A stretch of DNA of 64,000 nt, taken from NCBI GenBank assembly GCA_964489545.1, contig CAZAZE010000001.1, positions 337,412 through 401,411 on the forward strand, given 5' to 3'. A program made the translations under genes and the position numbers. The first letter of the stretch is position 1. Each line of letters starts with the position of its first letter. Under the pieces are notes generated by a model. That model did no database searches. It saw only the letters and a program-made list of their open reading frames with translations, and was not told the DNA's origin. Shown piece by piece: positions 3,258 through 61,774 of this stretch. This DNA comes from an uncultured Bacteroidales bacterium. Lineage in GTDB: Bacteria; Bacteroidota; Bacteroidia; Bacteroidales; JAGOPY01.

Positions 3258-3332
3258 TGGGTTGTACTGGATTCGAACCAGTGACCCCATGCCTGTCAAG
3301 CATGTGCTCTAAACCAACTGAGCTAACAACCC
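3258..3332 (-). tRNA. tRNA-Val (anticodon GAC)
   Basis: Minus strand GGGTTGTTAGCTCAGTTGGTTTAGAGCACATGCTTGACAGGCATGGGGTCACTGGTTCGAATCCAGTACAACCCA. Full cloverleaf, with anticodon loop TTGACAG. Confidence 0.93.
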
Positions 3333-7461: not shown

Positions 7462-7535
7462 GCCGATGTAGCTCAGCTGGCCAGAGCAGCTGATTTGTAA
7501 TCAGCCGGTCGGCGGTTCGAATCCGTCCATCGGCT
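7462..7535 (+). tRNA. tRNA-Thr (anticodon TGT)
   Basis: Cloverleaf with anticodon arm GCTGA-TTTGTAA-TCAGC and T-loop GGTTCGAATCC. Confidence 0.95.
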
Positions 7536-7568
7536 CTTGCATGGCAACCACGTAAGCTATTTCAATTC

Positions 7569-7650
7569 GGGGAGATTCCAGAGCGGTCAAATGGGGCAGA
7601 CTGTAAATCTGTTGGCGCGGCCTTCGGAGGTTCGAATCCTCCTCTCCCCA
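7569..7650 (+). tRNA. tRNA-Tyr (anticodon GTA), long variable arm
   Basis: GGGGAGA acceptor paired with TCTCCCC. Anticodon loop CTGTAAA. Variable arm GGCGCGGCCTTC. Confidence 0.95.
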
Positions 7651-7675
7651 CAAAAACGCACACGCACGCCCATCC

Positions 7676-7748
7676 GCGGAAGTAGCTCATTTGGTAGAGC
7701 GACAGCCTTCCAAGCTGTAGGTAGCGGGTTCGAGACCCGTCTTCCGCT
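7676..7748 (+). tRNA. tRNA-Gly (anticodon TCC)
   Basis: GCGGAAG acceptor paired with CTTCCGC. Anticodon arm ACAGC-CTTCCAA-GCTGT. Confidence 0.95.
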
Positions 7749-7753
7749 CATCA

Positions 7754-7825
7754 GCCTTTGTAGCTCAGGGGTAGAGCACTTCCTTGGTAAGGAAGGGGTC
7801 ATGAGTTCAATTCTCATCAAAGGCT
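7754..7825 (+). tRNA. tRNA-Thr (anticodon GGT)
   Basis: GCCTTTG acceptor paired with CAAAGGC. Anticodon arm CTTCC-TTGGTAA-GGAAG. Confidence 0.95.
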
Positions 7826-9128: not shown

Positions 9129-9201
9129 ACGGGTGTAGCTCAATTGGCAGAGTAGTGGTCTCCAAAACCATTGGCTGTAGGTTCGAGTCCTACCACCCGT
9201 G
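9129..9201 (+). tRNA. tRNA-Trp (anticodon CCA)
   Basis: ACGGGTG acceptor paired with CACCCGT. Anticodon loop CTCCAAA. Lies between tuf and secE, as is usual. Confidence 0.93.
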
Positions 9202-29222: not shown

Positions 29223-30275
29223 TCAATTGAACCAGAACCCGTTGGGGATGATACCGGCACGGAAAGAATCTAATAGCGCGCCGTCAGCAGGGTCAAAGCG
29301 GTAAATCATACCGTTCTGGACATAATCCAGGGGATCCGCCGCATAAATGAGGCCTGTTTTTTCATCAAATCCGAGCCCGTAGAAATATATATCCGAAGGG
29401 ATCAGCGGCATGTTGCTCAGTGACGGGTTATCAACTGATACGCTGAAAATACCTCCGGGATGGAAATAGTACAGCACATCCCCCGTTTCATTGGCAATGA
29501 GTTGCTCGGGGTGAAGGTCGGCAGCAGGAAACTGCAGCGAATGCAAAATTTCCAGGGAAACCGGATCGATGCAGTATAGCGCGCCCTGTGTATCCGTATC
29601 CGGGTTTGGAAAACCGTTATACCCCAGCCCGGAGCACAACACCCATACCCTGCCTGACTTGTCCGCCACAATCCCGGCCGGTCGGTCGGCCAATGTGAGC
29701 GTTACCACTTCATCATTCCCCGGATCCACCACCGAAATCCTATTATCAGATCCCCATGCCCCTGTATTCATGACAAAGAGCCGCCCGGAAGCGATGAGCA
29801 TTTCATCGGGCCCGGCCCCGGTCGGAATATCACCGGTCTTGCTGAACGTGTTGACGTCAATTTTCGCGATAATATTGTCCCAGGATGAGACATAGGCGGT
29901 TTCCTCATAAAAAACGATGTACCTCGGGCTGTTCACCTGGTCGATCGAAGCTACGGACTTAAAATCCTGCATATTGACCACCTCGACTCGGTTGCTGTTG
30001 TTGACAGCAATCCAGGCCAGATCACGGTACACGGCGATTGATTGGACAATGTTTCCCAGGGGCCGCCCATTGGCCTGTTCAAACAGATCGGAGGTGACCG
30101 TGCCGCTGTCACGGTCAAACGCCATCACCGTTCCGGAACCATTCTGGAAAGGTCCTTCGTTGATGATAAAAACGCTGTTCTTCCACTGGCTGTCCGGCTG
30201 AGCACTGTCTTTGTCACATGAGAATAAGAACGCGGCTGTAGCCGCAATGAGAATCAAATTTGAAATGTAACGCAT
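29223..30275 (-). CDS. Surface lipoprotein, YncE-like beta-propeller; candidate B12-capture partner of BtuB (BtuG-like by context)
   Basis: Lipobox (AFLFSC) and repeated blade-like segments. It is co-directional with, and 6 nt downstream of, the riboswitch-controlled TonB-dependent receptor. Confidence 0.6.
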   Translation of the reverse strand: MRYISNLILIAATAAFLFSCDKDSAQPDSQWKNSVFIINEGPFQNGSGTVMAFDRDSGTVTSDLFEQANGRPLGNIVQSIAVYRDLAWIAVNNSNRVEVVNMQDFKSVASIDQVNSPRYIVFYEETAYVSSWDNIIAKIDVNTFSKTGDIPTGAGPDEMLIASGRLFVMNTGAWGSDNRISVVDPGNDEVVTLTLADRPAGIVADKSGRVWVLCSGLGYNGFPNPDTDTQGALYCIDPVSLEILHSLQFPAADLHPEQLIANETGDVLYYFHPGGIFSVSVDNPSLSNMPLIPSDIYFYGLGFDEKTGLIYAADPLDYVQNGMIYRFDPADGALLDSFRAGIIPNGFWFN

Positions 30276-30281
30276 GAAATA

Positions 30282-32270
30282 CTAGTGTTTAGGGTTTAGA
30301 GTTTGGTGCTTAGTGTTTAATGACTGCTGACTGCTGACTGCTGACTGCTGACTGCTGACTGCTGACTGCTGACTGCCCACAGCCACCCGCAGTGTCACCA
30401 GGAAGTTGAACCCGGGCATGGGACGGTATGGGACAACCTGATAATCCATATTGAATATGTTATTTAAATTCATCTGGACGGTCAAAGGCAGGGAATGGCG
30501 CAGGGCCCATGTTTTTGATGCCACAACATCCATAAGAAAGTATCCCGGTAATGAATCCGCATTGTCTTTTGAAGTATAGATCAGACCGGTAAAATTGCCC
30601 CTGAGGAACAGCTCAAATCCCCTGAATGATATTCCTGGACGTACCGACGCCCGATGTATCGGCGTGTATATCAGCTGCTTATGATAGGATTCATCAAACT
30701 CAAACTGCTTCAGCTGGTTGGTCGACCGGGTGAAGGAATAATTGCCGTTGAAGCTTACACCCAGCCGGCCGAACTGCTGCTCATAACCGGTGCTGAGCTC
30801 TATACCCCGCGATAAGACCTTTTGTGCGTTTTCCACGGACCAAAAACTGGCCCCGGGAAGCCAGAGGATCCATCCGTCGACCAGGGAGGTATAGGCTGTC
30901 GCATCAAAACTAAGCCTGACATCCTTCAATGAGGGTTTAAGTGTCACGCCTGCTTCGAAATTCCAGCTCTTCTCCGGCTCGAGTCCGGGATTTCCACCGG
31001 GGACCCAGAAGCGTTCATTCAGTGTCGGGGCCCTGAAATTTCGGGATACGCTCAGGCGTCCGGAAAGGAATTTCCACAGCGGGCCCTGAAAGCCAGCGGA
31101 GAAGAGGAAAGGCGGACGGTAACCAGTCACGAATTCCTGCCGGCCGTTCAGGCTGAATTGCCATTTGAACGGCGTGAAATCATGGCTGAAAGACGCATAC
31201 AGGCTGATCGACTGCTGATCTTCCGCCTGGGCGTAGAAATCCAGGTCGGCAAACTCATAAGTGTACTGTACACCGGCCAGCAAAACGGAACGGGGCGAAA
31301 ATTCCAGGCTGTTCTCTGCGGATGCGGCAGCAGTCTGGCTCCTGATCACGGAGTATACTTCTCCGGAAGGATCCGTATACCGCGTAAATTCATTGAAATA
31401 GGCTATCCGGGCCTCCTGAACCGACTTACGGTTATAGTTCTTCCACGACAGCATGCCGCGCCAGGAGCGGTCGATCTGGCTGGCTTCCGATTCATTCTGG
31501 GTCAGGGTCGGGGGAATATCGCGCCCGGCATACTGAAACCACAGGCTGGCCATCAGGTACTGCTGGCCGGATAATTTAAGAGACAGGTCCTGCAAAAAAC
31601 CGCCGCGTGAAACCGAAGCATGATCCAGCTTATCACGGTTTCCATATAAATCATTATAGGAAAAATCATTCTGTGACCCGTTCAGTGACCAGGCCGTTCT
31701 CGAAAACAATTTTTCACCGGACCATTCCGCGCTCCCTTCGAGGGCAAAGGTGCGAAAACTGCCTGCAGAGAAAGCTGCGGTGATTTTAGCGGCTGAAGGA
31801 CCGAAGACCGGACGGGTGGAAAGGTGCAGGCTGCCGCCGATGGCACCGCTGCCGAATATCGGGCTGGCTCCGCCGTAAAGCAGGGATATATCCTTAAAAA
31901 AGCCGCCCTGTATCAGGGAAAGGTCGACATAACCGATATTGGGCGGGGAAACTCTGATGCCGTTCCAGAACAGGCTGGTATGGTTGGCCGAGGTGCCCCG
32001 AAGAGAAAACGTGGCCAGCGTTCCCTGTCCGTAGTTTCTCACATAAGCCCCGGTGAGGCCGGTCAGTAATTCTGATAAGGTGGCGGCAGGGATCCGCATC
32101 CGGTCCAGGCTGTCGAACGAAACTGACTGTTGCCCTTTGGCATAACGGTTGATCCTTGAAGAAGTGATGTGAACATCCGGGAGCGACAATACCGTATCGG
32201 GCGCGCTATCCTGGCCGCTTGCCGCGACCGCAGCCAGAACCATCAACCATGTCATCAATTTTCCACGCAT
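30282..32270 (-). CDS. btuB: TonB-dependent outer-membrane receptor, vitamin B12 transporter BtuB-like
   Basis: Plug and 22-strand barrel features (TonB box region DTVLSLPDVHITSS; YGGASPIFGSGAIGG). Preceded by a cobalamin riboswitch. The start is set at ATG 32270 (MRGKLMTWLMVLAAVAASG signal peptide). The last 34 codons are repeat-encoded. Confidence 0.88.
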   Translation of the reverse strand: MRGKLMTWLMVLAAVAASGQDSAPDTVLSLPDVHITSSRINRYAKGQQSVSFDSLDRMRIPAATLSELLTGLTGAYVRNYGQGTLATFSLRGTSANHTSLFWNGIRVSPPNIGYVDLSLIQGGFFKDISLLYGGASPIFGSGAIGGSLHLSTRPVFGPSAAKITAAFSAGSFRTFALEGSAEWSGEKLFSRTAWSLNGSQNDFSYNDLYGNRDKLDHASVSRGGFLQDLSLKLSGQQYLMASLWFQYAGRDIPPTLTQNESEASQIDRSWRGMLSWKNYNRKSVQEARIAYFNEFTRYTDPSGEVYSVIRSQTAAASAENSLEFSPRSVLLAGVQYTYEFADLDFYAQAEDQQSISLYASFSHDFTPFKWQFSLNGRQEFVTGYRPPFLFSAGFQGPLWKFLSGRLSVSRNFRAPTLNERFWVPGGNPGLEPEKSWNFEAGVTLKPSLKDVRLSFDATAYTSLVDGWILWLPGASFWSVENAQKVLSRGIELSTGYEQQFGRLGVSFNGNYSFTRSTNQLKQFEFDESYHKQLIYTPIHRASVRPGISFRGFELFLRGNFTGLIYTSKDNADSLPGYFLMDVVASKTWALRHSLPLTVQMNLNNIFNMDYQVVPYRPMPGFNFLVTLRVAVGSQQSAVSSQQSAVSSQQSLNTKHQTLNPKH
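30285..30376. repeat. Composite tandem heptamer array: 5 degenerate GTGTTTA units (30285-30319) plus 8 perfect TGACTGC units (30321-30376)
   Basis: Read directly from the sequence. It fills the btuB / propeller-gene junction and is translated as the btuB C-terminal tail. Confidence 0.95.
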
Positions 32271-32351: not shown

Positions 32352-32566
32352 CTGTTTTTGATCACCAATGGCAGGTTTTCTGACTTGACCTGTCTGCCGG
32401 CGGCCTTCCCGTTCTGCGCATCGCTGAGCGGAACAGTGGCAAAGGGTGCCGGAGAACTTGGCCCGGAAGGGCCAGGGCTTACAGCAGCGGGTACTGTCCG
32501 GGATTCACACCCGGTTCCCTATTATGTCGTGTTCCATGAAACGGTTCACGACCACCATTGATCCGG
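32352..32566 (-). promoter_or_regulatory. Cobalamin (adenosylcobalamin/B12) riboswitch
   Basis: The minus strand contains AGGGAACCGGGTGTGAATCCCGGACAGTACCCGCTGCTGTAAGC, GCCACTG...GGGAAGGC, and the B12 box AAGTCAGAAAACCTGCC, in the canonical order and spacing. Confidence 0.88.
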
Positions 32567-32574
32567 CAAAGTTA
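32567..32574 (-). promoter_or_regulatory. Bacteroidota -7 promoter box (TAACTTTG) for the riboswitch-btuB transcript
   Basis: Reverse complement of caaagtta, placed just 5' of the riboswitch P1 region. Confidence 0.5.
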
Positions 32575-37052: not shown

Positions 37053-37799
37053 CTACTTCAATTCCCCCTTGTGGTATTTTTCCGTTCGGGTGAGTCTCCC
37101 CTGCTCATCATAATACGACCATGCGCCCTGTTTCACGCCGTTTTCGTAGGATCCAACCAGGCGCAGCGTACCATCTTCATAAAACTCCTGGTACACTCCG
37201 TGCAGATTGTCTTCCATGTATGTCTTTTCTGACTGGATGTTCCCGTTGACGCGGAAGGTCAGGGCGGGGCCGTTGAGTTTTCCGTCACGGTAATGATTTT
37301 CAGCTATTTTATTCGATTTGGTGTTATACCATACCGCAACACTGTCGCGCAGGCCATCCTTAAACCAGGCTTCTTCCTGCAGGATCCCGCCATCGTAATA
37401 AATCCGGGTCCGGCCATGGAGCTTATCTCCCCGGTATTCCTTCTCCCATAACGGTTTTCCCATTCTGCCGTACTGACGGCTCATCCCATCCAGCAGGTTG
37501 TCACGGTAAAAAGCCTGGCTGCTGATGGCCCCTTTGCTGTCTATTTCAAGGAACAAACCGTTCCTGAGGCCATTCCGGTATTCCTCGACGCGCATTACAA
37601 TGCCCGTGGGATACCAGGTAATCCAGGTGCCCTCCTTCTTCCCGTTAAAATAATGTCCTTCCGACACCAGGTCTCCGATGGTGTCGCGGGAAAAAACCCG
37701 TACCCCATGATCCTGGGCTGGAAGTTGCAGATTAAAAAATATGAATAGCGCAATGAATAAGAAAAAAGTTCTCATCTGGCAAGAAATCTTTAGGTTCAT
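37053..37799 (-). CDS. MORN-repeat-variant / YwqK-like repeat protein (secreted)
   Basis: Repeated G-x-W-x-x-(Y/W)-Y-x-x-G motifs (GTWITWYPTG, GAWSYYDEQG). Signal peptide. 4-bp overlap with rimO. Confidence 0.7.
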   Translation of the reverse strand: MNLKISCQMRTFFLFIALFIFFNLQLPAQDHGVRVFSRDTIGDLVSEGHYFNGKKEGTWITWYPTGIVMRVEEYRNGLRNGLFLEIDSKGAISSQAFYRDNLLDGMSRQYGRMGKPLWEKEYRGDKLHGRTRIYYDGGILQEEAWFKDGLRDSVAVWYNTKSNKIAENHYRDGKLNGPALTFRVNGNIQSEKTYMEDNLHGVYQEFYEDGTLRLVGSYENGVKQGAWSYYDEQGRLTRTEKYHKGELK

Positions 37800-39103
37800 G
37801 AAGGAACAACCGTTCCGAACAAATCGAAATAATCCGCCTTTTCGACCCTGACCCTGCAGAAATCCCCCGGCTTCAGGCTTCCGGCGCCCGAAATGAGGAT
37901 CTCATTGTCGACTTCGGGAGAATCAAATTCGGATCTCCCGATCATGTATTCCCCTTCTGCCCGGTCGATGATCACTTTCAGCACCGTCCCGACCTTCTCC
38001 TGGTTTTTTTCCAGGGAGATTGCCTGCTGGATTTCCATGATCTCTTCCATCCGCGACCGCTTCACCGCTTCCGGAACCACATCATGCAGGTAATAAGCTG
38101 CCGTTTTTTCTTCCGGGGAATAAGTAAACACCCCCAAACGATCGAAGCGCTGCCGTTGGACAAAGGCTTTGAGCTCTTCGAAATGTTCTTCCGTTTCGTA
38201 CGGAAAACCTGTGATGAGTGTAGTCCGGATGGCGATCCCGGGTACTTTTTCCCGGAACCGGTCCAGCAGTTTCAAGGTTTTTTCGGTGGTGATGCCCCGG
38301 TTCATGGAACGCAACATCATATCGCTGATGTGCTGAAGTGGGATGTCGATGTATTTGCAGATTTTTTCCTGGCGCCGCATCACGTCGAGCAGATCTTCGG
38401 GAAAATCGGTGGGATAGGCGTAGTGAAGCCGGATCCATTCGATGCCGGGAATTTCGCACAGGGCATCCAGCAGCGGCCCCAGCCTTCTCTCGCGGTAAAG
38501 GTCCATCCCGTAATAAGTGAGATCCTGGGCGATGAGGATGAGTTCCCTGACGCCCCGGGCGGCCAGGTGGGTGGCCTCGTGCACCAGGTCCTCCAGCGGG
38601 CGCGAGACGTGTTTGCCACGGATCAGCGGGATAGCGCAGAAGGAGCATTTCTTGTTGCAGCCTTCCGAAATTTTCAGATAGGCATAATGCCCGGGCGTGG
38701 TCAGCAGCCGTTCCCCGATCAGCTCTTTCCGATAGTCAACGCCCAGGTCCTTCAGAATGACCGGCAGGTCGTTCACCCCGTAAAACCCATCGACTTCCAG
38801 CAGTTCGGCTTCGAGTTCCTTACGGTAGCGCTGGGAGAGGCAGCCCATGACGTACACTTTCCCTACCAGGCCATCTTTCTTGGCCTGGGCGTAGCGCAGG
38901 ATGGTGTCGATGGATTCTTCCTTGGCGTCGCTGATGAAACCGCAGGTATTCACCACTACTACTTCAGAGGGTTCGTCGGATTCATGCACCACATCTACCC
39001 GGGCCGCTTTAAGCTGGCCCATCAGCACCTCCGAATCGACAATGTTTTTGGAACACCCGAGCGTAACGATATTGACTTTATGCCTTGCCTGCTTCGTCTT
39101 CAC
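37796..39103 (-). CDS. rimO: Ribosomal protein S12 methylthiotransferase RimO
   Basis: MTTase N-domain (VNIVTLGCSKNIVDSE), radical SAM CNKKCSFC, and a TRAM C-terminus. GTG start. Confidence 0.92.
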   Translation of the reverse strand: MKTKQARHKVNIVTLGCSKNIVDSEVLMGQLKAARVDVVHESDEPSEVVVVNTCGFISDAKEESIDTILRYAQAKKDGLVGKVYVMGCLSQRYRKELEAELLEVDGFYGVNDLPVILKDLGVDYRKELIGERLLTTPGHYAYLKISEGCNKKCSFCAIPLIRGKHVSRPLEDLVHEATHLAARGVRELILIAQDLTYYGMDLYRERRLGPLLDALCEIPGIEWIRLHYAYPTDFPEDLLDVMRRQEKICKYIDIPLQHISDMMLRSMNRGITTEKTLKLLDRFREKVPGIAIRTTLITGFPYETEEHFEELKAFVQRQRFDRLGVFTYSPEEKTAAYYLHDVVPEAVKRSRMEEIMEIQQAISLEKNQEKVGTVLKVIIDRAEGEYMIGRSEFDSPEVDNEILISGAGSLKPGDFCRVRVEKADYFDLFGTVVPS

Positions 39104-39117
39104 AGTAGAAAAAGAAA

Positions 39118-39156
39118 AGTTCCCGAACTTAAACCTTAAACCCTAAAACTTAAACC
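39118..39156 (-). repeat. 39-nt dispersed element, copy 1 (reverse orientation): GGTTTAAGTTTTAGGGTTTAAGGTTTAAGTTCGGGAACT
   Basis: Differs at only 2-3 positions from the copies at 41517-41555 and 49694-49732. The ftsY stop codon TAA (39150-39152) lies inside it. Confidence 0.9.
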
Positions 39157-40106
39157 TCCCCAAAGAGGCTGTCCACAAACTCATACCGGTCGAACACCTG
39201 GAGGTCGCCGATCTTTTCGCCGATTCCGATATATTTTACGGGAATCTTAAACTGGTCGGAGATCCCGATGGCGACGCCGCCTTTGGCCGTACCGTCGAGC
39301 TTGGTGAGGGCCAGTGCGTTGACTTCTGTCGCGGCGGTGAATTGCCGGGCCTGTTCGATGGCATTCTGGCCCGTGCTGGCGTCGAGTACGAGGAGCACTT
39401 CATGGGGCGCTTCGGGAATCACTTTCTGGATCACCCGTTTGATCTTGGCCAGTTCGTTCATCAGGTTGATCTTATTGTGGAGCCGTCCTGCGGTGTCGAT
39501 GATCACCACGTCGTAGCCCTGGCTGTGGGCCGCTTTCACTGTATCGAAGGCCACTGCCGCCGGATCGGCGTTCATGCCCTGGGCGATGATAGGCACCCCG
39601 GCGCGTTCGGCCCAGATGGTCAGCTGGTCAACCGCTGCGGCGCGAAAGGTGTCGGCAGCGCCGACCAGCACCGACTTGCCGGCGTTCCTGAACTGATGCG
39701 CCAGTTTGCCGATGGTTGTGGTTTTACCGACGCCGTTCACGCCGACCACCATGATCACATAGGGCCTGGGAAGCGCTTCGGAAGCGAAGTCAAACCGCTC
39801 GCCGGTCTCGTTCTCCTGCAGCAGCGCCGCAATCTCTTCCTTGAGGATGCGGTTCAACTCTTCCGTTCCGATGAACTTATCACGGGCCACCCTTTGCTGG
39901 ATCCGTTCGATGATCTTCAGGGTGGTCTCCACCCCTACGTCGCTGGTGACGAGGATCTCTTCCAGGTTATCCAGCACTTCCTCATCCACGCGCGATTTTC
40001 CGACCAGGGCGCGCGAGATCCTCGAGAAAACGCTTTGGCGGGTTTTATCCAGCCCTTTATCAAGGCTTTCTTTTTTTTCTTTGGAGAAAAACGAAAACAG
40101 GCCCAT
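39150..40106 (-). CDS. ftsY: Signal recognition particle receptor FtsY
   Basis: SRP54-type GTPase motifs GVNGVGKTTT, DTAGR and TKLDG. Confidence 0.95.
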   Translation of the reverse strand: MGLFSFFSKEKKESLDKGLDKTRQSVFSRISRALVGKSRVDEEVLDNLEEILVTSDVGVETTLKIIERIQQRVARDKFIGTEELNRILKEEIAALLQENETGERFDFASEALPRPYVIMVVGVNGVGKTTTIGKLAHQFRNAGKSVLVGAADTFRAAAVDQLTIWAERAGVPIIAQGMNADPAAVAFDTVKAAHSQGYDVVIIDTAGRLHNKINLMNELAKIKRVIQKVIPEAPHEVLLVLDASTGQNAIEQARQFTAATEVNALALTKLDGTAKGGVAIGISDQFKIPVKYIGIGEKIGDLQVFDRYEFVDSLFGEV

Positions 40107-40617: not shown

Positions 40618-41523
40618 ATGAACTGGGAGCCGTATATCAAGGGATTCAAATCATTCCTGAAGCTGGAAAAGTCGCTTTCCGACAATTCGGTGCAAGCCTA
40701 TGCACGCGACGTGGAAAAGCTTTCCCGCTTCATAAAGGAAGCCCATCCCGGCCTCGGGATCCGCGATATCCGCCTGGCTCACCTGCAGGAATTCATCAAA
40801 TGGATCAACCTGCAGGGGATGAATGCCCGGTCGCAGGCGCGGATCATCTCCGGCACCCGGGCTTTCTTCAAGTACCTGGTCCTGGAAAACATCGTCAGTT
40901 CGAGTCCGGCTGAAATGCTTGAGTTGCCCAGGACAGGCCGGGTGCTGCCCGACACCTTGCGGGTGGATGAGATCGAAAAGATGTTTTCGGTCATCGATCT
41001 GAGCACGCCGGAAGGAGAGCGCAACAAGGCGATGCTGGAATTCCTGTATGGCTGCGGCCTGCGCGTGAGCGAGCTGACCAACCTGAGGCTATCCGATATC
41101 CGGCGCCAGGAAGGCTTCATCTCGGTCATCGGCAAAGGGAACAAGCAGCGGCTGGTCCCCATCGGCGGCCGCGCCCTGAAGCAATTTGATATTTACCGTG
41201 AACGCATCCGCAGCCATATTACGCCCCAGAAGGGGCAGGAAGATTTTATTTTCCTGAACAGCCGGGGGAAGAAACTCTCCAGGGTGATGGTTTTCTACAT
41301 CATCAAACAACTTGCCGAGAAAGCGGGGATCCGCAAGACGATCAGCCCCCACACGGTGCGCCATTCATTTGCCACGCATCTGATCGAGGGAGGCGCCGAC
41401 CTGCGCGCCGTGCAGGAAATGCTCGGTCACGCTTCGATCACCACAACCGAGATCTATACCCACCTCGACCGCGACTACCTTAGGAGCAATATCCTGGAAT
41501 TCCACCCCAGAGGGAAGGTTTAA
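40618..41523 (+). CDS. xerD: Tyrosine recombinase XerD
   Basis: SAM-like N-domain plus catalytic HTVRHSFATHLIEGGADLRAVQEMLGHASITTTEIYTH. Confidence 0.88.
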   Translation: MNWEPYIKGFKSFLKLEKSLSDNSVQAYARDVEKLSRFIKEAHPGLGIRDIRLAHLQEFIKWINLQGMNARSQARIISGTRAFFKYLVLENIVSSSPAEMLELPRTGRVLPDTLRVDEIEKMFSVIDLSTPEGERNKAMLEFLYGCGLRVSELTNLRLSDIRRQEGFISVIGKGNKQRLVPIGGRALKQFDIYRERIRSHITPQKGQEDFIFLNSRGKKLSRVMVFYIIKQLAEKAGIRKTISPHTVRHSFATHLIEGGADLRAVQEMLGHASITTTEIYTHLDRDYLRSNILEFHPRGKV

Positions 41524-41609
41524 GTTTTGAGGGTTAAGGTTTAAGTTCGGGAACTTATAATTTAGAACTCCAACTTAAACCTTAAACCTTAAACCTTAAA
41601 CCTTAAAGT
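41517..41609. repeat. 39-nt dispersed element copy 2 (41517-41555) plus an inverted (CTTAAAC)4-5 arm (41564-41609); candidate bidirectional terminator
   Basis: GGTTTAAGTTTTGAGGGTTAAGGTTTAAGTTCGGGAACT, then a loop, then AGAACTCCAACTTAAACCTTAAACCTTAAACCTTAAACCTTAAAG. Both convergent stop codons are embedded in the element. Confidence 0.9.
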
Positions 41610-42061
41610 TCTTCGATGTCGCCTTTCTCATTGATCAGGACGCCCCAGTTTACGGCTACCAGGTCGCCATCCTGGAAGAAAAAGTCGATCATGGCGTCGT
41701 CGTAAGAAACCCTGCGTTCTCCGCTGGTTTCCATTTCGATTTCGGCCACTTCGAATCCTTTGGCCGTCATCAGGGCGATGATGTCCTGCTCAGTCATGTC
41801 GAAGACGTCCTTGCCGTACATTTTCGCTTCAGGGTTTTCGGTTTCAATGCAGGAAACCACCGATTTCTCCCTGCCTTCAAAAAATACGGTCACACCCAGT
41901 TCCCAGTAATACAGGACCACGGTGTTAAATCCGTCATCATCCTCGATATTTTCGACGTCTTCGGGCTGGCCGAGGATGGAGATGACTTTTTCAGATGTTT
42001 CCCCGAAATGGATTTCCCCATAGCCTTTTTTGGGGACGATGTCAAGGGTTAAGGCACTCAT
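41603..42061 (-). CDS. Hypothetical cytoplasmic acidic protein (152 aa)
   Basis: ORF with gene-like composition. No motif recognised. Confidence 0.55.
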   Translation of the reverse strand: MSALTLDIVPKKGYGEIHFGETSEKVISILGQPEDVENIEDDDGFNTVVLYYWELGVTVFFEGREKSVVSCIETENPEAKMYGKDVFDMTEQDIIALMTAKGFEVAEIEMETSGERRVSYDDAMIDFFFQDGDLVAVNWGVLINEKGDIEEL

Positions 42062-43004: not shown

Positions 43005-43078
43005 GGCGAGGTAGCTCAGGTGGTTAGAGCGTCGGATTCATAACCCGAAGGTCACGAGTTCAATTCTCGTCCTCGCTA
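43005..43078 (+). tRNA. tRNA with CAT anticodon (elongator Met, or Ile2 if lysidine-modified)
   Basis: GGCGAGG acceptor paired with CCTCGCT, anticodon loop TTCATAA, T-loop GTTCAATTC. Met and Ile2 cannot be distinguished by eye. Confidence 0.9.
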
Positions 43079-48833: not shown

Positions 48834-49694
48834 ATGCCAGGGATTAAACCCACCATCATCGCCTTGCTTATCCTGATCACCGGCACACTGAAATCCCAGG
48901 TCCCGGATTTCTGCCTGACCCGGGATGAATACCGGCTGTACACCCTGATCAATGATTTTCGGGAAAAGCAGGGCCTTCCAGTCGTACCGGTCTCCCGCGC
49001 ACTCTGTTACGTGGCCAAGATCCACGCCCGCGACCTGTATCACAATAACCCCGACACCTCATTCTGCAGCCTGAACAGCTGGTCGGACAAAGGCGAATGG
49101 ACTGCGTGCTGTCATTCCCGCTTCACGCCCAATCCTTCCTGCATCGTCAACAAGCCGAAAGAACTTGCCGGGTACGCCGGCGAAGGGCATGAGCTGGTTT
49201 ACTGGGACAGCCAGGGCAATCACCCGGACACGGCCATGCGTTTCTGGACGAGCATCGCGCAGGCCCGGGAAGTTTTGCTCAATCAGAACAAATGGAGCTA
49301 TTTCAACTGGCGGGCGATGGGCGTCGGCCTGTACCAGGGATATGCCTGCGTGTGGTTCGGAGAAGTGCCGGACACACTTTCCGAGCCTACCTTGTGCGCC
49401 AATGCGGCGGGTTCAGATTTCCTGGTGCTGCCGATGAAAGGAGCGGACATGAAAGGCGTAATTACGGCACCTGAAGGCAGACACTACCTCATCTTCGGAA
49501 GTTTCAACTCATTGGAGGATGCGCAAAAAGTCGCGGAGAAATACCGCAAGGACGGGTTCTACCAGGCTAAGGTTATTGTTAAAGAAAATACGTACAGAGT
49601 GTCCCTTTCCGATCACGCCACGCAGGAAGAAGCTTTGAACGCACGGAAAATGCTTGGCACGGAATACAAAGAAGCCTGGATAACAAAATACTAG
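48834..49694 (+). CDS. CAP (SCP/PR-1-like) domain plus SPOR domain protein
   Basis: N-terminal signal. CAP-like region (LINDFREKQGLPVVPVSRALCYVAKIHARDL). C-terminal SPOR (YLIFGSFNSLEDAQKVAEKYRKDGFYQAKV...YRVSL). Confidence 0.7.
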   Translation: MPGIKPTIIALLILITGTLKSQVPDFCLTRDEYRLYTLINDFREKQGLPVVPVSRALCYVAKIHARDLYHNNPDTSFCSLNSWSDKGEWTACCHSRFTPNPSCIVNKPKELAGYAGEGHELVYWDSQGNHPDTAMRFWTSIAQAREVLLNQNKWSYFNWRAMGVGLYQGYACVWFGEVPDTLSEPTLCANAAGSDFLVLPMKGADMKGVITAPEGRHYLIFGSFNSLEDAQKVAEKYRKDGFYQAKVIVKENTYRVSLSDHATQEEALNARKMLGTEYKEAWITKY

Positions 49695-49783
49695 GTTTAA
49701 GTTTTGAGGTTTAAGGTTTAAGTTGGGGAACTTAAAACCAATGAACTTCAACTTAAACCTTAAACCTTAAACCTCAAAACTTC
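49694..49783. repeat. 39-nt dispersed element copy 3 (49694-49732) plus an inverted copy (49743-49783); candidate bidirectional terminator
   Basis: GGTTTAAGTTTTGAGGTTTAAGGTTTAAGTTGGGGAACT ... GAACTTCAACTTAAACCTTAAACCTTAAACCTCAAAACTTC. The right arm encodes the last residues (VLRFKV) and the stop of sucD. Confidence 0.9.
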
Positions 49784-50638
49784 ATGCATGCGTTTGCCGA
49801 TGTCGGCGGGTGAATCCACCACGTGAATTCCACATTCTCTCAGGATGGCTTTTTTAGCCTGGGCGGTGTCTTCCTTGCCGCCGATGATGGCGCCGGCGTG
49901 GCCCATGGTGCGGCCTTTTGGCGCTGTTGCACCGGCGATGAATGCGACGACGGGCTTGGTGCCGTTCTCTTTCAGCCAGTAGGCCGCTTCGGCCTCCATC
50001 GTCCCGCCGATCTCGCCGATCATCACGATCCCGGCGGTGTCAGGGTCTTTGGTGAATAGCCGCACGGCGTCGAGCGTGGTGGTGCCGATGATCGGATCGC
50101 CGCCGATGCCGATGGCGGTCGACTGCCCGAGCCCGGTCTTGGTGAGTTGGTCCACCGCCTCGTAGGTGAGGGTCCCCGAGCGGGAAACGATGCCGATGGG
50201 CCCCGGGGTGTGAATGAACCCGGGCATAATGCCGACCTTGGCTTCGCCCGGGGTGATCACGCCGGGGCAATTCGGACCGACCAGCCGGGCATTCCGGCAG
50301 TGCAGGTATTCTTTCACGATGATCATGTCAGACACAGGGATCCCTTCGGTGATGCACACGATCACCTTGATGCCGGCGTCAGCGGCTTCCATGATGGCGT
50401 CGGCCGCAAAGGAAGGCGGGACAAAGATCACGGAAACATCCGCGCCCTCTTTCTCCACCGCTGAACTGACCGTGTCGAATACCGGGCGGTCGAGATGGAA
50501 CGTGCCGCCTTTGCCGGGGGTCACCCCGCCGATCACGTTGGTGCCATACTCTATCATCTGGCTGGCGTGGAAGGTGCCTTCCTTGCCGGTAAATCCCTGG
50601 ACAAGCACGCGGGAATGTTTGTTGACTAAAACGCTCAT
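49760..50638 (-). CDS. sucD: Succinate--CoA ligase (ADP-forming) subunit alpha
   Basis: SRSGTLTYE, the phospho-His loop GHAGAI, and the CoA-binding N-terminus [14 protein letters not shown]. Confidence 0.95.
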
Positions 50639-50647
50639 GGCTTGCGA

Positions 50648-50675
50648 GTGTTTAGTGGTTTGTGTTTAGTGTTTA
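50648..50675. repeat. Tandem heptamer array (GTGTTTA x3 plus one variant), equal to TAAACAC on the sucD coding strand
   Basis: gtgttta gtggttt gtgttta gtgttta, ending 9 nt upstream of the sucD start codon. Confidence 0.9.
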
Positions 50676-50804: not shown

Positions 50805-52232
50805 ATGATCTACTCATCCGAAAACCAGACCATATGCGCCATCGCGACGCCGCCGGGCCACGGCGCCATCGCCATCATCCGGGTCAGCGGACCCGAAGCG
50901 CTGCGGATCTGTGAAGCGGTTTTTGTTCCCCGTAAAGCCGGGAAAAACATCACGGAAGCCGCGACGCACACCATCCATTTCGGGACGGTCGAGCACGGCG
51001 AAGAGCTCATCGACGAGGTGCTGGTCAGCGTATTCCGGGAGCCGCACTCTTACACGGGCGAAAACGCCGTGGAGATCTCCTGCCACGGTTCGTCGTACAT
51101 CCAGCAAAAGATCGTCGAACTGCTCATCAGCCAGGGCGCCCGGCACGCGAAGCCGGGGGAATTCACGATGCGCGCCTTCCAGCACGGCAAATTCGACCTG
51201 GCGCAGGCCGAGGCGGTGGCCGACCTGATTGCCGCAGAATCCAAATCGGCCCACGACCTGGCCCTGGACCAGATGCGCGGCGGCTATTCCCGGAAGATCA
51301 GCGCACTGCGCGCCCAGTTGCTCGATTTCGCCTCGCTGATCGAACTGGAACTGGATTTCAGCCAGGAAGACGTGGAATTCGCCGACCGGCCCGCCCTGAT
51401 CAGGCTGCTGGAGGAGATCAAACCGGAGATCGTTCAGCTGGTTTCTTCCTTCTCCTACGGCAACGTGCTCAAGACCGGGATACCCGTGGCGATCGCCGGG
51501 CGGCCGAATGTCGGGAAATCGACCCTGCTCAATGCCATCCTCAACGAAGAGCGGGCCATCGTTTCGGAGATCCCCGGCACCACGCGCGATACCATTGAAG
51601 ACACGATCATCGTCAGCAATTTCGCCTTCCGGTTCATCGACACTGCCGGCCTTCGTCATTCCACCGACAAAATCGAGAACCTGGGCATCGAGAGAACCCA
51701 CGAGAAGATCCGGCAGGCGGCGATTGTTTTGTATGTGTTTGATGTTCGTGATGCCGAAGGCGAAAGGTTCCTGAACCAGTTCCAGGTTCCAGGTTCCAGG
51801 TTCCAGGATATTGATGAAGACCGCCAACTTCCGGCTGCTGACGACACGAAATTCATTTTCATTGGGAATAAATCCGATCTGCTCGAGGAGACGCCTGCCC
51901 ATTTAAAAGAACTTTTAGAAAAGCAATGCATTTTTATTTCCGCGAAACGCAAGGAGAATATCAACCTGGTCCTGGACCGGCTGGTGGAGACCGTCAGCGG
52001 GATGAACATACAGGACCGGACGGTGGTTTCCAATGTCCGGCATTTTGAAGCGCTCACAGAGGCCGGCAAAGCGGTTGACGCAGTGCTAAGCGGGCTGCAG
52101 GCCGGCCTGAGCGGCGACCTGCTCACGGTCGATCTTCGCAGCGCCCTGTTCCACCTGGGCACCATCACCGGGGAGATCACGACCGATGAGATCCTGGGGA
52201 ATATTTTCGGGAGGTTCTGTATCGGAAAGTAG
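50805..52232 (+). CDS. mnmE: tRNA modification GTPase MnmE (TrmE)
   Basis: G1 GRPNVGKSTL, G3 DTAG, G4 NKSD, and the C-terminal FCIGK tetrapeptide. Contains an in-frame heptamer-repeat insert between G3 and G4. Confidence 0.95.
   Translation: MIYSSENQTICAIATPPGHGAIAIIRVSGPEALRICEAVFVPRKAGKNITEAATHTIHFGTVEHGEELIDEVLVSVFREPHSYTGENAVEISCHGSSYIQQKIVELLISQGARHAKPGEFTMRAFQHGKFDLAQAEAVADLIAAESKSAHDLALDQMRGGYSRKISALRAQLLDFASLIELELDFSQEDVEFADRPALIRLLEEIKPEIVQLVSSFSYGNVLKTGIPVAIAGRPNVGKSTLLNAILNEERAIVSEIPGTTRDTIEDTIIVSNFAFRFIDTAGLRHSTDKIENLGIERTHEKIRQAAIVLYVFDVRDAEGERFLNQFQVPGSRFQDIDEDRQLPAADDTKFIFIGNKSDLLEETPAHLKELLEKQCIFISAKRKENINLVLDRLVETVSGMNIQDRTVVSNVRHFEALTEAGKAVDAVLSGLQAGLSGDLLTVDLRSALFHLGTITGEITTDEILGNIFGRFCIGK
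51778..51807 (+). repeat. Intragenic tandem heptamer array (AGTTCCA, then GGTTCCA x3, then GG) inside mnmE
   Basis: Read directly from the sequence. It encodes QFQVPGSRFQ and is preceded by the palindrome GGTTCCTGAACC. Confidence 0.9.
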
Positions 52233-52287
52233 GACTGTAGGACGGTAAGACGGTAAGACGGTAGGACGGTAAGACGGTAGGACGGGG
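52232..52287. repeat. Tandem octamer array (RGACGGTA x7), starting at the last base of the mnmE stop codon
   Basis: ggactgta ggacggta agacggta agacggta ggacggta agacggta ggacgggg, followed by GCATTAAAA. Confidence 0.92.
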
Positions 52288-60315: not shown

Positions 60316-60373
60316 TTCATTAAATGACATTTCAATTTCAAGCTCAATCTAAACTATCAACTTTAAACTTAAC

Positions 60374-60401
60374 TTTGATCTTTGAACTTTGAACCTTGAA
60401 C
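60374..60401. repeat. Tandem heptamer array (TTTGATC, TTTGAAC x2, CTTGAAC), ending 4 nt before the rarA ATG
   Basis: Read directly from the sequence. Confidence 0.85.
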
Positions 60402-60405
60402 TGCA

Positions 60406-61671
60406 ATGTCCGTTCCTCTTGCAGAAATATTGCGGCCGAAGGGCCTGGATGATTTCCTGGGCCAGGAGCACCTGGTGGGAACGCATTCCATTCTCCGGAA
60501 AGTCATCGAATCGGGCAGGATCCCGTCGATGATCTTCTGGGGGCCGCCGGGCGTCGGGAAAACCACGCTGGCCCATATCATCAGCGGTCAGCTGGGCGTT
60601 CCTTTCTTCACGCTCAGCGCTGTCAGTTCAGGTGTTAAGGAGGTGCGCAGCGTCATCGAACAGGCCGGTGATTCTCCCACGGGGGCCATACTTTTCATCG
60701 ATGAAATCCACCGATTCAGCAAATCCCAGCAGGATTCGCTGCTGGGGGCCGTGGAAAAGGGCGTGATCACCCTGATCGGCGCCACTACTGAGAACCCGTC
60801 CTTTGAGGTCATCTCTCCCCTGCTGTCGCGCTGCCAGGTTTATATCCTGAAATCACTGGGCAAGGATGATCTGCTGAAATTACTCGCCAGTGCCATTTCA
60901 TACCTGGAAACACTGCACCAGAAAAAAATCAAACTGCAAGAGGATGAGGCCCTGCTGCGGATCTCCGGCGGGGATGCGCGCAAACTCCTTAATGCGCTTG
61001 AGCTTATCGTCAATACGGATATAAAGAACGATCCGATCGTCATCACCAACGAAAAAGCGCTGAGCATCATCCAGGAAAAACTGGCGATCTATGACAAGGG
61101 CGGCGAGATGCACTACGACGTGATCTCGGCCTTCATCAAATCGCTGCGCGGCAGCGATCCCAACGGGGCGGTCTACTGGCTGGCCCGGATGATCGAAGGC
61201 GGCGAGGACCCGCTCTTCATCGCGCGCCGGATGGTGATCCTGGCTTCGGAAGATATCGGAAACGCCAATCCCAACGCACTGCTGCTGGCCAATACCTGCT
61301 TCGACGCCATCCACAAGATCGGTATGCCCGAAGGCCGGATCATCCTGTCGCAAACGGCCGTCTACCTGGCCACTTCACCCAAGAGCAACGCATCGTACAT
61401 GGCGATCGAGGCGGCCATTGAAGAAACCCACCGGACGGGGGACCTGCCGGTGCCGCTGGCCATCCGCAACGCCCCGACAAGGCTGATGAAGGAGATCGGC
61501 TATGGGAAGAATTATCATTATGCCCATTCTTATGAAGGAAACTTCATTGAAATGGAATTCCTTCCTGATAAAATCAAAGGGAAAAAATTCTATGAACCAG
61601 GCAAAAACCGTAAGGAGGAAGAAATCCGGGCCTGGCTGAAGGCCAGGTGGAAGGAGAAATATGGCTATTAG
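60406..61671 (+). CDS. rarA: Replication-associated recombination protein A (MgsA/RarA AAA+ ATPase)
   Basis: Walker A GPPGVGKTT, Walker B ILFIDEIHRF, and the MgsA C-terminal domain (YDVISAFIKSLRGSDPNGAVYWLARM). Confidence 0.93.
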   Translation: MSVPLAEILRPKGLDDFLGQEHLVGTHSILRKVIESGRIPSMIFWGPPGVGKTTLAHIISGQLGVPFFTLSAVSSGVKEVRSVIEQAGDSPTGAILFIDEIHRFSKSQQDSLLGAVEKGVITLIGATTENPSFEVISPLLSRCQVYILKSLGKDDLLKLLASAISYLETLHQKKIKLQEDEALLRISGGDARKLLNALELIVNTDIKNDPIVITNEKALSIIQEKLAIYDKGGEMHYDVISAFIKSLRGSDPNGAVYWLARMIEGGEDPLFIARRMVILASEDIGNANPNALLLANTCFDAIHKIGMPEGRIILSQTAVYLATSPKSNASYMAIEAAIEETHRTGDLPVPLAIRNAPTRLMKEIGYGKNYHYAHSYEGNFIEMEFLPDKIKGKKFYEPGKNRKEEEIRAWLKARWKEKYGY

Positions 61672-61672
61672 C

Positions 61673-61707
61673 TTAAGGTTTAAGGTTTAAGGTTTAAGGT
61701 TTAAGTT
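61673..61707. repeat. Tandem heptamer array (TTAAGGT x4 plus TTAAGTT), starting 2 nt after the rarA stop
   Basis: Read directly from the sequence. It is the same unit as in the 39-nt dispersed element. Confidence 0.95.
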
Positions 61708-61732
61708 TAATTTTACACTAAGCCCTGAGCCC

Positions 61733-61774
61733 TAAACACTAAACACTAAACACTAAACACTAAACACTAAACAA
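61733..61774. repeat. Tandem heptamer array (TAAACAC x5 plus TAAACAA), ending 6 nt before the kdsA ATG
   Basis: Read directly from the sequence. Confidence 0.95.

Follow-up and report, generated by a model that had tools for sequence, protein, structure and literature searches.

Two converging gene-trailer modules probably form the inverted repeat at the end of sucD in an uncultured Bacteroidales bacterium

The DNA analysed here is a 64-kb window (64,000 nucleotides; contig CAZAZE010000001.1 of assembly GCA_964489545.1, positions 337,412 to 401,411) from an uncultured Bacteroidales bacterium, in which sucD, coding for the alpha subunit of succinate--CoA ligase, and a convergent SPOR-domain gene are separated by a strong inverted repeat. 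This feature is probably not a mobile palindrome but a gene-trailer module, specific to the lineage, that is present twice with the copies facing opposite ways. The module consists of three to five tandem 7-nt units (GGTTTAA/GTTTTGA) followed by GTTSGGGAACTT, and is found just behind stop codons in the sense orientation; GTTTTGA, GTTTTAG and GTGTTAA occur beside GGTTTAA as unit variants, and the short tail GTT-SGGG-(A)ACTT is conserved. Because the two genes converge, each with a sense trailer of its own, the two copies are reverse complementary and can pair over 24-33 bp. At the sucD end the module forms the last codons of the gene: the EVL motif of SucD is kept, the native tail of one or two residues is replaced by RFKV, and the protein is three residues longer than the 289-residue mode.

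The original prediction described this region as an inverted pair of a dispersed 39-mer, with one copy starting on the last base of the SPOR-gene stop and an inverted copy at 49743-49783 overlapping sucD. Both placements were verified, the first copy beginning at 49694, the last base of TAG 49692-49694, and the second matching exactly, with GAAGTTTTGAGGTTTAAGGTTTAAGGTTTAAGTTGAAGTTC as its reverse complement. The inverted-repeat arms (49693-49725 and 49749-49781) are 33 nt long and 88% complementary, around a core of 24 nt that is 100% complementary. Independent Logan assemblies, made from at least four runs of sludge and digester samples and from both DNA and RNA, contain the identical sequence, and therefore the inverted repeat is not an assembly artefact. 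The description as an inverted pair of one element stands only for the inverted repeat itself, since each of the convergent genes has its own sense-orientation trailer and no single inserted element is needed.

The modular nature of the repeat is evident from its other copies in the window, found behind ftsY (locus 1), between xerD and orf152 (locus 2), between the SPOR gene and sucD (locus 3) and, as an array, behind a rarA/mgsA-like gene (locus 4) (Table 1). The 39-mer is made of four 7-nt units (GTTTAAG TTTTGAG GTTTAAG GTTTAAG) and a non-repeat tail, TT(C/G)GGGAACTT. Three 40-mers with at most 2 mismatches lie behind ftsY, xerD and the SPOR gene, each in sense, and the left module at the SPOR gene differs from the 40-mer consensus at 1 position; when up to 3 mismatches are allowed, the window contains 3 matches to the 40-mer against 0 expected, and the heptamer core motif GGTTTAAGGTTTAAG, with up to 2 mismatches, has 19 matches against 0.06 expected. 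The copies behind orf152 and sucD, which are the inverted partners, are also formed by an array plus GTTG(G/A)AGTTC in sense to their own gene; the orf152 copy together with the xerD copy is the first inverted pair of the original prediction. In TRF, tandem repeats of period 7 appear at 39128, 41574, 49693 (4.3 copies, the left module), 49752 and 61673, with 4.3-5.6 copies each, all of them heptanucleotide arrays of at least three head-to-tail copies. Since the same irregular unit order plus tail recurs at several loci, the module copies that share them are related by descent and are not independent products of slippage.

Table 1. Trailer modules, associated genes and related features of the window (coordinates are positions in the 64-kb stretch)
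Feature	Position	Strand	Description
SPOR-domain gene	48834..49694	+	286 aa; TAG stop 49692-49694 abuts left module; from ORF list and sequence
Left trailer module (copy 3 of the 39/40-mer)	49694..49733	+	Units GTTTAAG TTTTGAG GTTTAAG GTTTAAG at 49695-49722; tail TTGGGGAACTT at 49723-49733
Spacer between the two modules	49734..49742	.	9 nt, AAAACCAAT; part of hairpin loop in predicted folds
Right trailer module, sucD's own	49743..49783	-	Minus strand: GAAG TTTTGAG (GTTTAAG)x3 at 49783-49752; degenerate tail TTGAAGTTC at 49751-49743
Stem-loop of both modules	49699..49782	.	24 perfect bp, 49699-49722 with 49759-49782; from inverted-repeat search and RNA folds
sucD, succinate--CoA ligase alpha subunit	49760..50638	-	292 aa; homology ends at L288; R289-V292 and stop from module; codon register ...ATG CAT GAA GTT TTG AGG TTT AAG GTT TAA, ...MHEVLRFKV*
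sucD leader array	50647..50675	-	(TAAACAC)-like x4, sense strand; ends 8 nt before ATG (50638)
ftsY	39150..40106	-	Ends ...GAG GTT TAA in first unit; codon register ...GGG GAG GTT TAA GTT TTA GGG TTT AAG GTT TAA, ...GEV* then VLGFKV*
Single module between ftsY and rimO/miaB-like gene	39117..39156	-
rimO/miaB-like gene	37796..39103	-
xerD	40618..41523	+	Ends ...AAG GTT TAA in first unit; codon register ...GGG AAG GTT TAA GTT TTG AGG GTT AAG GTT TAA, ...GKV* then VLRVKV*
Module behind xerD	41517..41556	+
Module behind orf152	41565..41609	-	CTTTAAG (GTTTAAG)x4 TTGGAGTTC
orf152	41603..42061	-	Stop TAA in first unit
rarA/mgsA-like gene	60406..61671	+
(GGTTTAA)x5 array behind rarA/mgsA-like gene	61670..61710	+	Starts one base past TAG; without GGG tail

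The point at which sucD passes into the module was located by comparison with the 120 closest SucD homologues and the solved SucD structures. All close homologues carry the CoA_binding, Succ_CoA_lig and Ligase_CoA Pfam domains of the SucD family; residues 1-288 of the window's protein align to 6mgg (E 6e-116) and residues 2-288 to E. coli 1jkj/2scu, with the alignments stopping at 288, and its N-terminus (MSVLVNK...) matches the solved homologues from residue 1. The conserved ...M-x-E-V-L block is found in all 120 homologues and in the solved structures and ends at ...EVL, so that homology runs out at L288. The codons of E286-V292 occupy 49783-49763 and the TAA 49762-49760, all within the right arm. 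It had been claimed that the final residues, ...HEVLRFKV, and the stop codon are read from repeat sequence; this is right for the terminus and the stop, whereas E-V-L is homologous and only RFKV is not. Equally, the suggestion that the 3' end of a core metabolic enzyme was replaced, or the element recruited as coding sequence, is borne out as far as the end is repeat-derived, although the change concerns only a variable tail of four residues.

The module's TAA at which ftsY and xerD stop is GAA in sucD, where it codes for Glu286 of the conserved block. Translation of sucD consequently continues with VLRFKV and ends at the second TAA that the module offers in frame. The fusion falls within codons 286/287, at an AAGTT microhomology, and a native-type end (GAA GTT CTC AAA TAA) exists in one of the species loci (L008). 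Among the 120 homologues the tail after EVL varies from 0 to 13 residues (1 in 51, 2 in 27, 3 in 18 and 4 in 13), so that a four-residue tail is ordinary and the effect of RFKV on this core enzyme should be trivial; we infer that the tail is selectively neutral. An ORF (open reading frame) joined to an array would be rescued, as each unit of the GGTTTAA family carries a stop triplet. As 7 is no multiple of 3, any frame entering such an array stops within 21 nt, and for this reason overlaps between ORFs and arrays are cheap.

A coincidental likeness between the end of sucD and the element, or an origin of the element from sucD, is almost certainly not the explanation. In its favour, E-V-L is universal among SucD orthologues, and the sequence coding for it here, GAAGTTTTG, fits the element as well. 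However, the allele with two units (L002, a Logan contig of the same species as the window, as are L001, L003 and L004) has 27 consecutive bases identical to the 40-mer, and the GTTTTGAG unit is standard in copies behind unrelated genes, both in the window and in metagenomes. Moreover, RFKV is present in no orthologue that lacks the repeat. The ...RFKV terminus occurs in 0 of the 120 close homologues, and the only one that also ends in KV (P0001, ...EVLNVKV) is encoded by a gene that bears a diverged copy of the repeat at the same junction; the finding named in the original prediction as contrary to it, ...VLRFKV in orthologues free of the repeat, was thus not made.

The same site was compared in relatives, among them L007, L153, L006, L157, L154 and L156, whose sucD genes are ~76-84% identical in nucleotides; the 80 Bacteroidota species loci from GTDB (L007-L086) had been chosen only for sucD. 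In the closest GTDB species representative (L007; SucD 94% identical in amino acids) the protein ends ...KEVLS* with TAA at 289 residues, and no array lies beside sucD (one TTCAAAG unit and TCCAGGG), while a (TTCAAAG)-type array occupies the SPOR side; the original prediction had asked whether relatives lacking the element differ in their C-terminus, and this one does. In L153 (92%, KEMLK*) four TTCAAAG units directly follow the TAG of sucD, and the SPOR side is its mirror image, so that at L153:2476-2603 an inverted pair of another heptamer, TAG|(TTCAAAG)x4 ... (CTTTGAA)x4|CTA, abuts both stops. Units of (GGTCAGC) type directly follow the sucD TAG in L006 and L157 (SucD 90% and 88%), with (GTTTTGA)n-GTTGGGGACTT on the SPOR side of L006, the L157 contig ending before that gene; L154 and L156 (91% and 90%) have no arrays, and L005 has a diverged GGTTTAA copy at the same sucD junction as the window. 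In a more distant Bacteroidales locus (L020:10893-10934) sucD (300 aa, ...KAKGYGRRDET*) ends inside (ATGAGAT)x6, an independent case. These comparisons show that the arrays turn over much faster than the genes, with their placement against stop codons kept.

Variation is also seen within the species. The sucD arm has three units in the window and in X1/X2, and two, with a 7-nt gap, in L002/L004 and in the RNA contigs of X3/X4; the SucD protein is identical across the two-unit and three-unit alleles, a copy-number polymorphism of the kind expected of heptanucleotide simple sequence repeats (SSRs). The contigs L001-L004 end in or just past the sucD array (e.g., 3 nt after the stop).

These comparisons bear on the possibility that the ~90-bp unit at 49693-49783 is one palindromic, non-autonomous mobile element with terminal inverted repeats (MITE-like or Correia/RPE-like), which was inserted and overwrote both ORF ends. 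In its favour, loci 2 and 3 share the 40-mer followed by a short spacer and then GAACTYCAACTT(AAACCTT)n, the copy number is high and assemblies break at the repeats, and inverted pairs of the same family recur in metagenome contigs. Nevertheless, there is no target-site duplication at either pair (flanks ATACT / TCATG and GGGA / TTCT), the arms are unequal in unit number and in tails, and the relatives show other heptamers or one arm at the site, with no clean empty site. That both outer ends coincide with ORF ends is left unexplained by a single insertion, and no transposase is linked to the pair, although the ORFs of the window were not screened for transposases. Most copies, furthermore, consist of a single arm, which always follows a gene in its sense direction (this applies to loci 1 and 4 in the window and to no fewer than 26 of the 33 copies from metagenomes), and a mobile palindrome is accordingly considered very unlikely.

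The family of trailer modules extends well beyond the window. Public metagenome contigs were scanned with the pattern GGTTTAAGTTSGGG(N)ACTT, yielding 66 loci; 27-33 of the matches are flanked by additional heptamer units in phase and count as true copies, the range being set by the strictness with which these units are scored. About 30 copies share the layout [stop codon]-[3-5 units]-GTTSGGGACTT-[A/T-rich sequence]. Of the 27 copies in the stricter set, 14 have an array at which a sense ORF of 100 codons or more terminates, and in 8 of these 14 the stop is inside the array, being the array's own TAA or TGA at offsets +4, +11 or +18. ORFs ending within the array are thus usual in this module family, as they also are in the window with ftsY, xerD and orf152. 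In several copies (L090, L094, L104) a separate canonical GC hairpin with a T-tract follows, and since the module sits between the stop codon and this canonical terminator, it is not itself the terminator. A same-family inverted partner is found nearby in 5-7 of the 33 copies, and such pairs recur in L091, L094, L110, L119, L125 and L147.

The summed word depth over the arrays in the sludge DNA runs is 38-63x the single-copy depth, assemblies breaking there, which indicates a high-copy family in the sludge community. Among the 80 species loci, by contrast, the specific module was found only in L005, the close relative of the window, besides the window itself, and therefore this family is lineage-restricted, whereas heptamer arrays in general are not; other AAGTTSGGGR matches in the species loci lie in non-repeat sequence with no heptamer array and look like chance. 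In L097, L108, L118/L137 and L122 a GGTTTAA-GGGGACTT module is chained with a second type, (TTGAATK)n-TCGGGA, which comes after or before it, and with further heptamer arrays. These chained modules suggest a general architecture of array plus SGGG tail. Once present, arrays would expand and contract by replication slippage, and would spread or be replaced through recombination or conversion with other copies.

Paired and single modules differ in their predicted RNA folds. The region that the original prediction proposed to fold, taken here as 49670-49810, gives a strong stem-loop of -43.6 kcal/mol (z -5.3) on the sucD strand and -49.8 kcal/mol (z -6.8) on the plus strand, with none of 200 shuffled sequences as good, and the xerD/orf152 pair also folds stably (-45.3 kcal/mol, z -5.0). 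In contrast, the single module (39085-39175) folds no better than shuffles (z +0.4) and shows no imperfect palindrome of the REP type. The RNA runs are represented by assembled contigs, which break at repeats. The sucD RNA contigs extend across the right arm and loop and enter the left arm, reaching 49700, which shows that the module is transcribed within the mRNA. Between ftsY and rimO, two RNA contigs (3.5 and 6.8 kb) span the single module without a break. Given this continuity and the lack of a significant fold, the single module appears to be an intercistronic or 3'-untranslated passenger and not a terminator. The consensus terminator scan found no site at 49693-49783 or 41517-41609, nor is there a stem with U-tract of the intrinsic type. 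No match to Rfam 15 was obtained in the region at gathering thresholds (the whole window was scanned), and in E-value mode 49600-49900 matched only hairpins of miRNA precursors from plants and animals, with scores of 25-37 bits where the thresholds are 66-119 bits.

Only paired modules would then give a stable 3' stem-loop, which could oppose 3' exonucleases or read-through for both convergent mRNAs. A 3' barrier for both messages is most plausibly the effect of the stem-loop, although this role is unproven, given an A/U-rich stem that lacks a proper U-tract, a silent terminator scan, close relatives without the hairpin and RNA evidence in the form of contigs, from which 3' ends cannot be placed. 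It would be incidental to the meeting of two modules of the same family and not the reason for their presence.

The converse, that the paired modules are a selected bidirectional terminator or stabiliser of mRNA 3' ends, and that the overlap with sucD is tolerated as the stem must start near the stop, is possible but doubtful. Very stable stem-loops form at both convergent pairs, the whole hairpin is contained in sucD RNA contigs, and the depth of the RNA contigs shifts across the pairs, from 362 to 47 at locus 2 and between 78-121 and 134-152 at locus 3; nevertheless, such differences simply reflect two different genes, and contigs cannot place 3' ends. L153 has an inverted pair of another heptamer at the same site, but the hairpin is not kept in other close relatives, with one arm in L007, non-complementary arrays in L006 and none in L154/L156, and most copies of the family are unpaired. 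The structure itself, an A/U-rich stem with no proper adjacent U-tract on which the terminator scan is silent, also argues against a selected terminator.

Several observations weigh against two independently placed trailers. Inverted partners at 5-7 of 33 metagenome copies, together with both module-bearing convergent pairs of the window, may exceed what independent placement would give; such an excess would speak for a unit that is itself palindromic, or for pairing being under selection. Keeping V-L across the sucD/module junction requires luck or selection. The tail GTTSGGGACTT is conserved over many environmental genomes, suggesting a function or a spreading mechanism that independent trailers leave unexplained. 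The incidental barrier proposed for the pair also has its difficulties: only 7 of the 24 base pairs of the stem are G-C, the U-rich stretch exists just on the sucD strand, several bases past the stem, and the terminator scan is silent there; the RNA evidence comes from contigs that break at repeats and may contain DNA.

A function of the module itself, as an RNA or DNA signal at ORF boundaries (a site for an RNA-binding protein, a context for termination or recycling, a Rho-related insulator or an uptake-type signal) of which the stop overlap is a part, is unlikely. The constant tail GTTSGGGACTT in many environmental contigs, in which the units vary, and the tight abutment on stop codons are consistent with it. 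So is the placement of arrays in the 80 species loci, where 23 of 53 intergenic period-7 arrays lie no more than 8 nt from an ORF boundary (8.7 +/- 2.4 at random; maximum 17 in 1000 trials). The outward-reading strand has G>C in 18 arrays against 6 in these species (11 against 5 at stops and 7 against 1 at starts), a polarity that is suggestive only. There is also a precedent in the TAACTGA repeats, which were proposed as binding sites of a regulator (PMC4679880). On the other hand, single copies show neither covariation nor structure and have no Rfam family, the unit sequence is replaced completely at the same site between close relatives, some trailer families (TTCAAAG) are without stop triplets, and no candidate binding protein was identified. 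That every trailer unit carries a stop triplet was considered as a general rule and discarded, since it holds for the GGTTTAA family but fails for the TTCAAAG arrays seen in L007 and L153.

Heptamer arrays that abut ORF boundaries are widespread in Bacteroidota. Period 7 is the commonest tandem-repeat period in 1.78 Mb of Bacteroidota loci (174 arrays against 44 in the next class), a set that includes loci picked for the repeat, and it also leads in most of the 80 loci that were selected on sucD alone; of the 79 period-7 arrays in the window and these species loci together, 68 fall outside called ORFs. It could be proposed that these arrays are not inert microsatellites but phylum-wide ORF-boundary elements of fixed polarity, with the G-rich, C-poor strand outward, present as G-poor leaders before starts and as C-poor trailers at or over stops, and that GGTTTAA-GTTSGGGACTT is a spreading family recognised by a specific factor (e.g., an RNA-binding protein) or a Rho insulator against antisense or read-through transcription; this is a speculative extension and distinctly unlikely.

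Leader arrays are also found in the window. G-poor arrays, on the sense strand (CTAAACA)n, (TAAACAC)n or (CTTTGAA)n, at 50647-50675, 61732-61773, 30283-30319 and 60359-60402 leave only 3-8 nt to the start codons of sucD, kdsA, a gene at 30275 (minus strand) and rarA, respectively. Their units, read in reverse complement, are of trailer type (TGTTTAG, TTCAAAG), so that starts and stops of ORFs are flanked by the same duplex repeats, the G-rich strand pointing outward. Translational coupling by pairing of trailer and leader was rejected at locus 4, (GGTTTAA)5 ... (CTAAACA)6, where the fold has z -1.0 and the leader is unpaired.

The nearest described system is that of the direct repeats of the heptamer TAACTGA, which occur in marine Beggiatoaceae, some Cyanobacteria and five Bacteroidetes (MacGregor 2015, PMC4679880), in which 13 BOGUAY ORFs overlap the repeats at the stop codon, other heptamer arrays were noted in Bacteroidetes intergenic regions and assemblies break at the repeats (PMC4679880). 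As in the module, the units are 7 nt long, tandem and intergenic, abut ORF boundaries and have stop triplets in all three frames, because of which ORFs running into TAACTGA or GGTTTAA arrays end quickly; both also share relatives without arrays at the same site, other heptamer arrays in the same intergenic regions of Bacteroidetes and assembly breaks. Unlike the module, TAACTGA repeats lie mostly just upstream of start codons, have one unit sequence and lack a conserved non-repeat tail, whereas the module trails genes, has another unit and the tail GTTSGGGACTT and occurs in near-identical 40-nt copies. More generally, as summarized in PMC4679880, Mrazek et al. (2007) found heptanucleotides to be the most abundant unit of long SSRs in most prokaryotic genomes, possibly through polymerase slippage, and long SSRs with units of 5-11 nt to be mainly intergenic and variable in copy number. 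The arrays of the window resemble these SSRs and the cyanobacterial STRR repeats in their heptanucleotide units, mainly intergenic position and variable copy number, but those are plain arrays, whereas here an irregular unit order plus a tail was copied to several loci. The STRR heptanucleotide repeats were reportedly described by Mazel et al. 1990.

Other classes of dispersed repeats are less similar. The repetitive extragenic palindromes of enterobacteria (REP/BIME) are short, high-copy repeats located in 3'-untranslated or intercistronic regions, often as inverted pairs, that are transcribed and, when paired, can stabilise the upstream mRNA; a single REP is an imperfect palindrome of 20-40 nt with a conserved 5' GTAG, mobilised by RAYT (Y1) transposases. 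The module shares with them its short length, dispersed high-copy distribution, location, transcription and the capacity of pairs to form stem-loops, but a single copy of it has no significant fold, consists of heptamers in tandem and extends over stop codons. The palindromic elements of Rickettsia and the Correia elements of Neisseria measure 100-150 bp and either interrupt ORFs in frame or are bounded by defined TA target duplications. As in these, a dispersed repeat is translated in conserved proteins without disabling them, although here only four terminal codons and the stop are involved, with no target duplication and an array of microsatellite type. Intrinsic bidirectional terminators are likewise stem-loops between convergent stops and present on both transcripts; the sucD/SPOR stem differs from them in being long and A/U-rich and in containing a stop codon, with the U-tract absent on one strand and displaced on the other. 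An array-plus-tail module at stop codons was found neither in the literature searched nor in Rfam, PMC4679880 being the nearest. The sucD/SPOR feature belongs to the heptanucleotide boundary arrays, a known kind of repeat.

Regarding the neighbouring genes, the SPOR domain of the 286-residue product was confirmed by Pfam (residues 214-284, E 2.4e-10), but the CAP domain with which it had been credited was not found by Pfam at E<=0.001. The alignment of the xerD product to E. coli XerD stops short of the C-terminus. Further arrays of the window include a perfect (TGACTGC)x8 beside a degenerate (TAGTGTT)x5 at 30321-30376, upstream of the minus-strand gene at 30275, whose product has a signal-peptide-like start. 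At 51779-51807, (GTTCCAG)x4.1 lies within the coding sequence of mnmE/trmE, translated as QFQVPGSRFQ and present also in the Logan contigs L001-L003, in a G-domain loop that is hypervariable among the relatives L153 and L007. At 52229-52285 an 8-nt array, (GTAGGACG)x7, begins at the mnmE TAG (ORF end 52232), forming a period-8 trailer that abuts a stop. Ordinary and unrelated features are a cobalamin riboswitch (32353-32574, minus strand, 103 bits) and tRNA genes, seven in all, of which four are clustered at 7462-7825 and the others lie at 9129-9201, 3258-3332 and 43005-43078.

For sucD itself the consequence is small, a variable C-terminal tail with three additional residues. The locus is of interest as a clean example, dated by its relatives, of microsatellite-type repeats rewriting gene ends, and it shows why heptamer arrays with stops in all frames can occupy ORF ends at almost no cost. 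If the boundary-element reading were true, the sucD overlap would show a signal selected to start at the stop codon. In practical terms, the modules break short-read assemblies, put gene ends at contig edges and can mislead the annotation of gene ends in metagenome-assembled genomes. Ribosomes of these bacteria do not use Shine-Dalgarno pairing, and the unusual translation initiation of the Bacteroidota phylum gives a context for the boundary arrays. The conservation of the array-plus-tail module in many environmental Bacteroidota and the excess of arrays at ORF boundaries hint at an uncharacterised role, or at a biased mutational mechanism, at translation boundaries.

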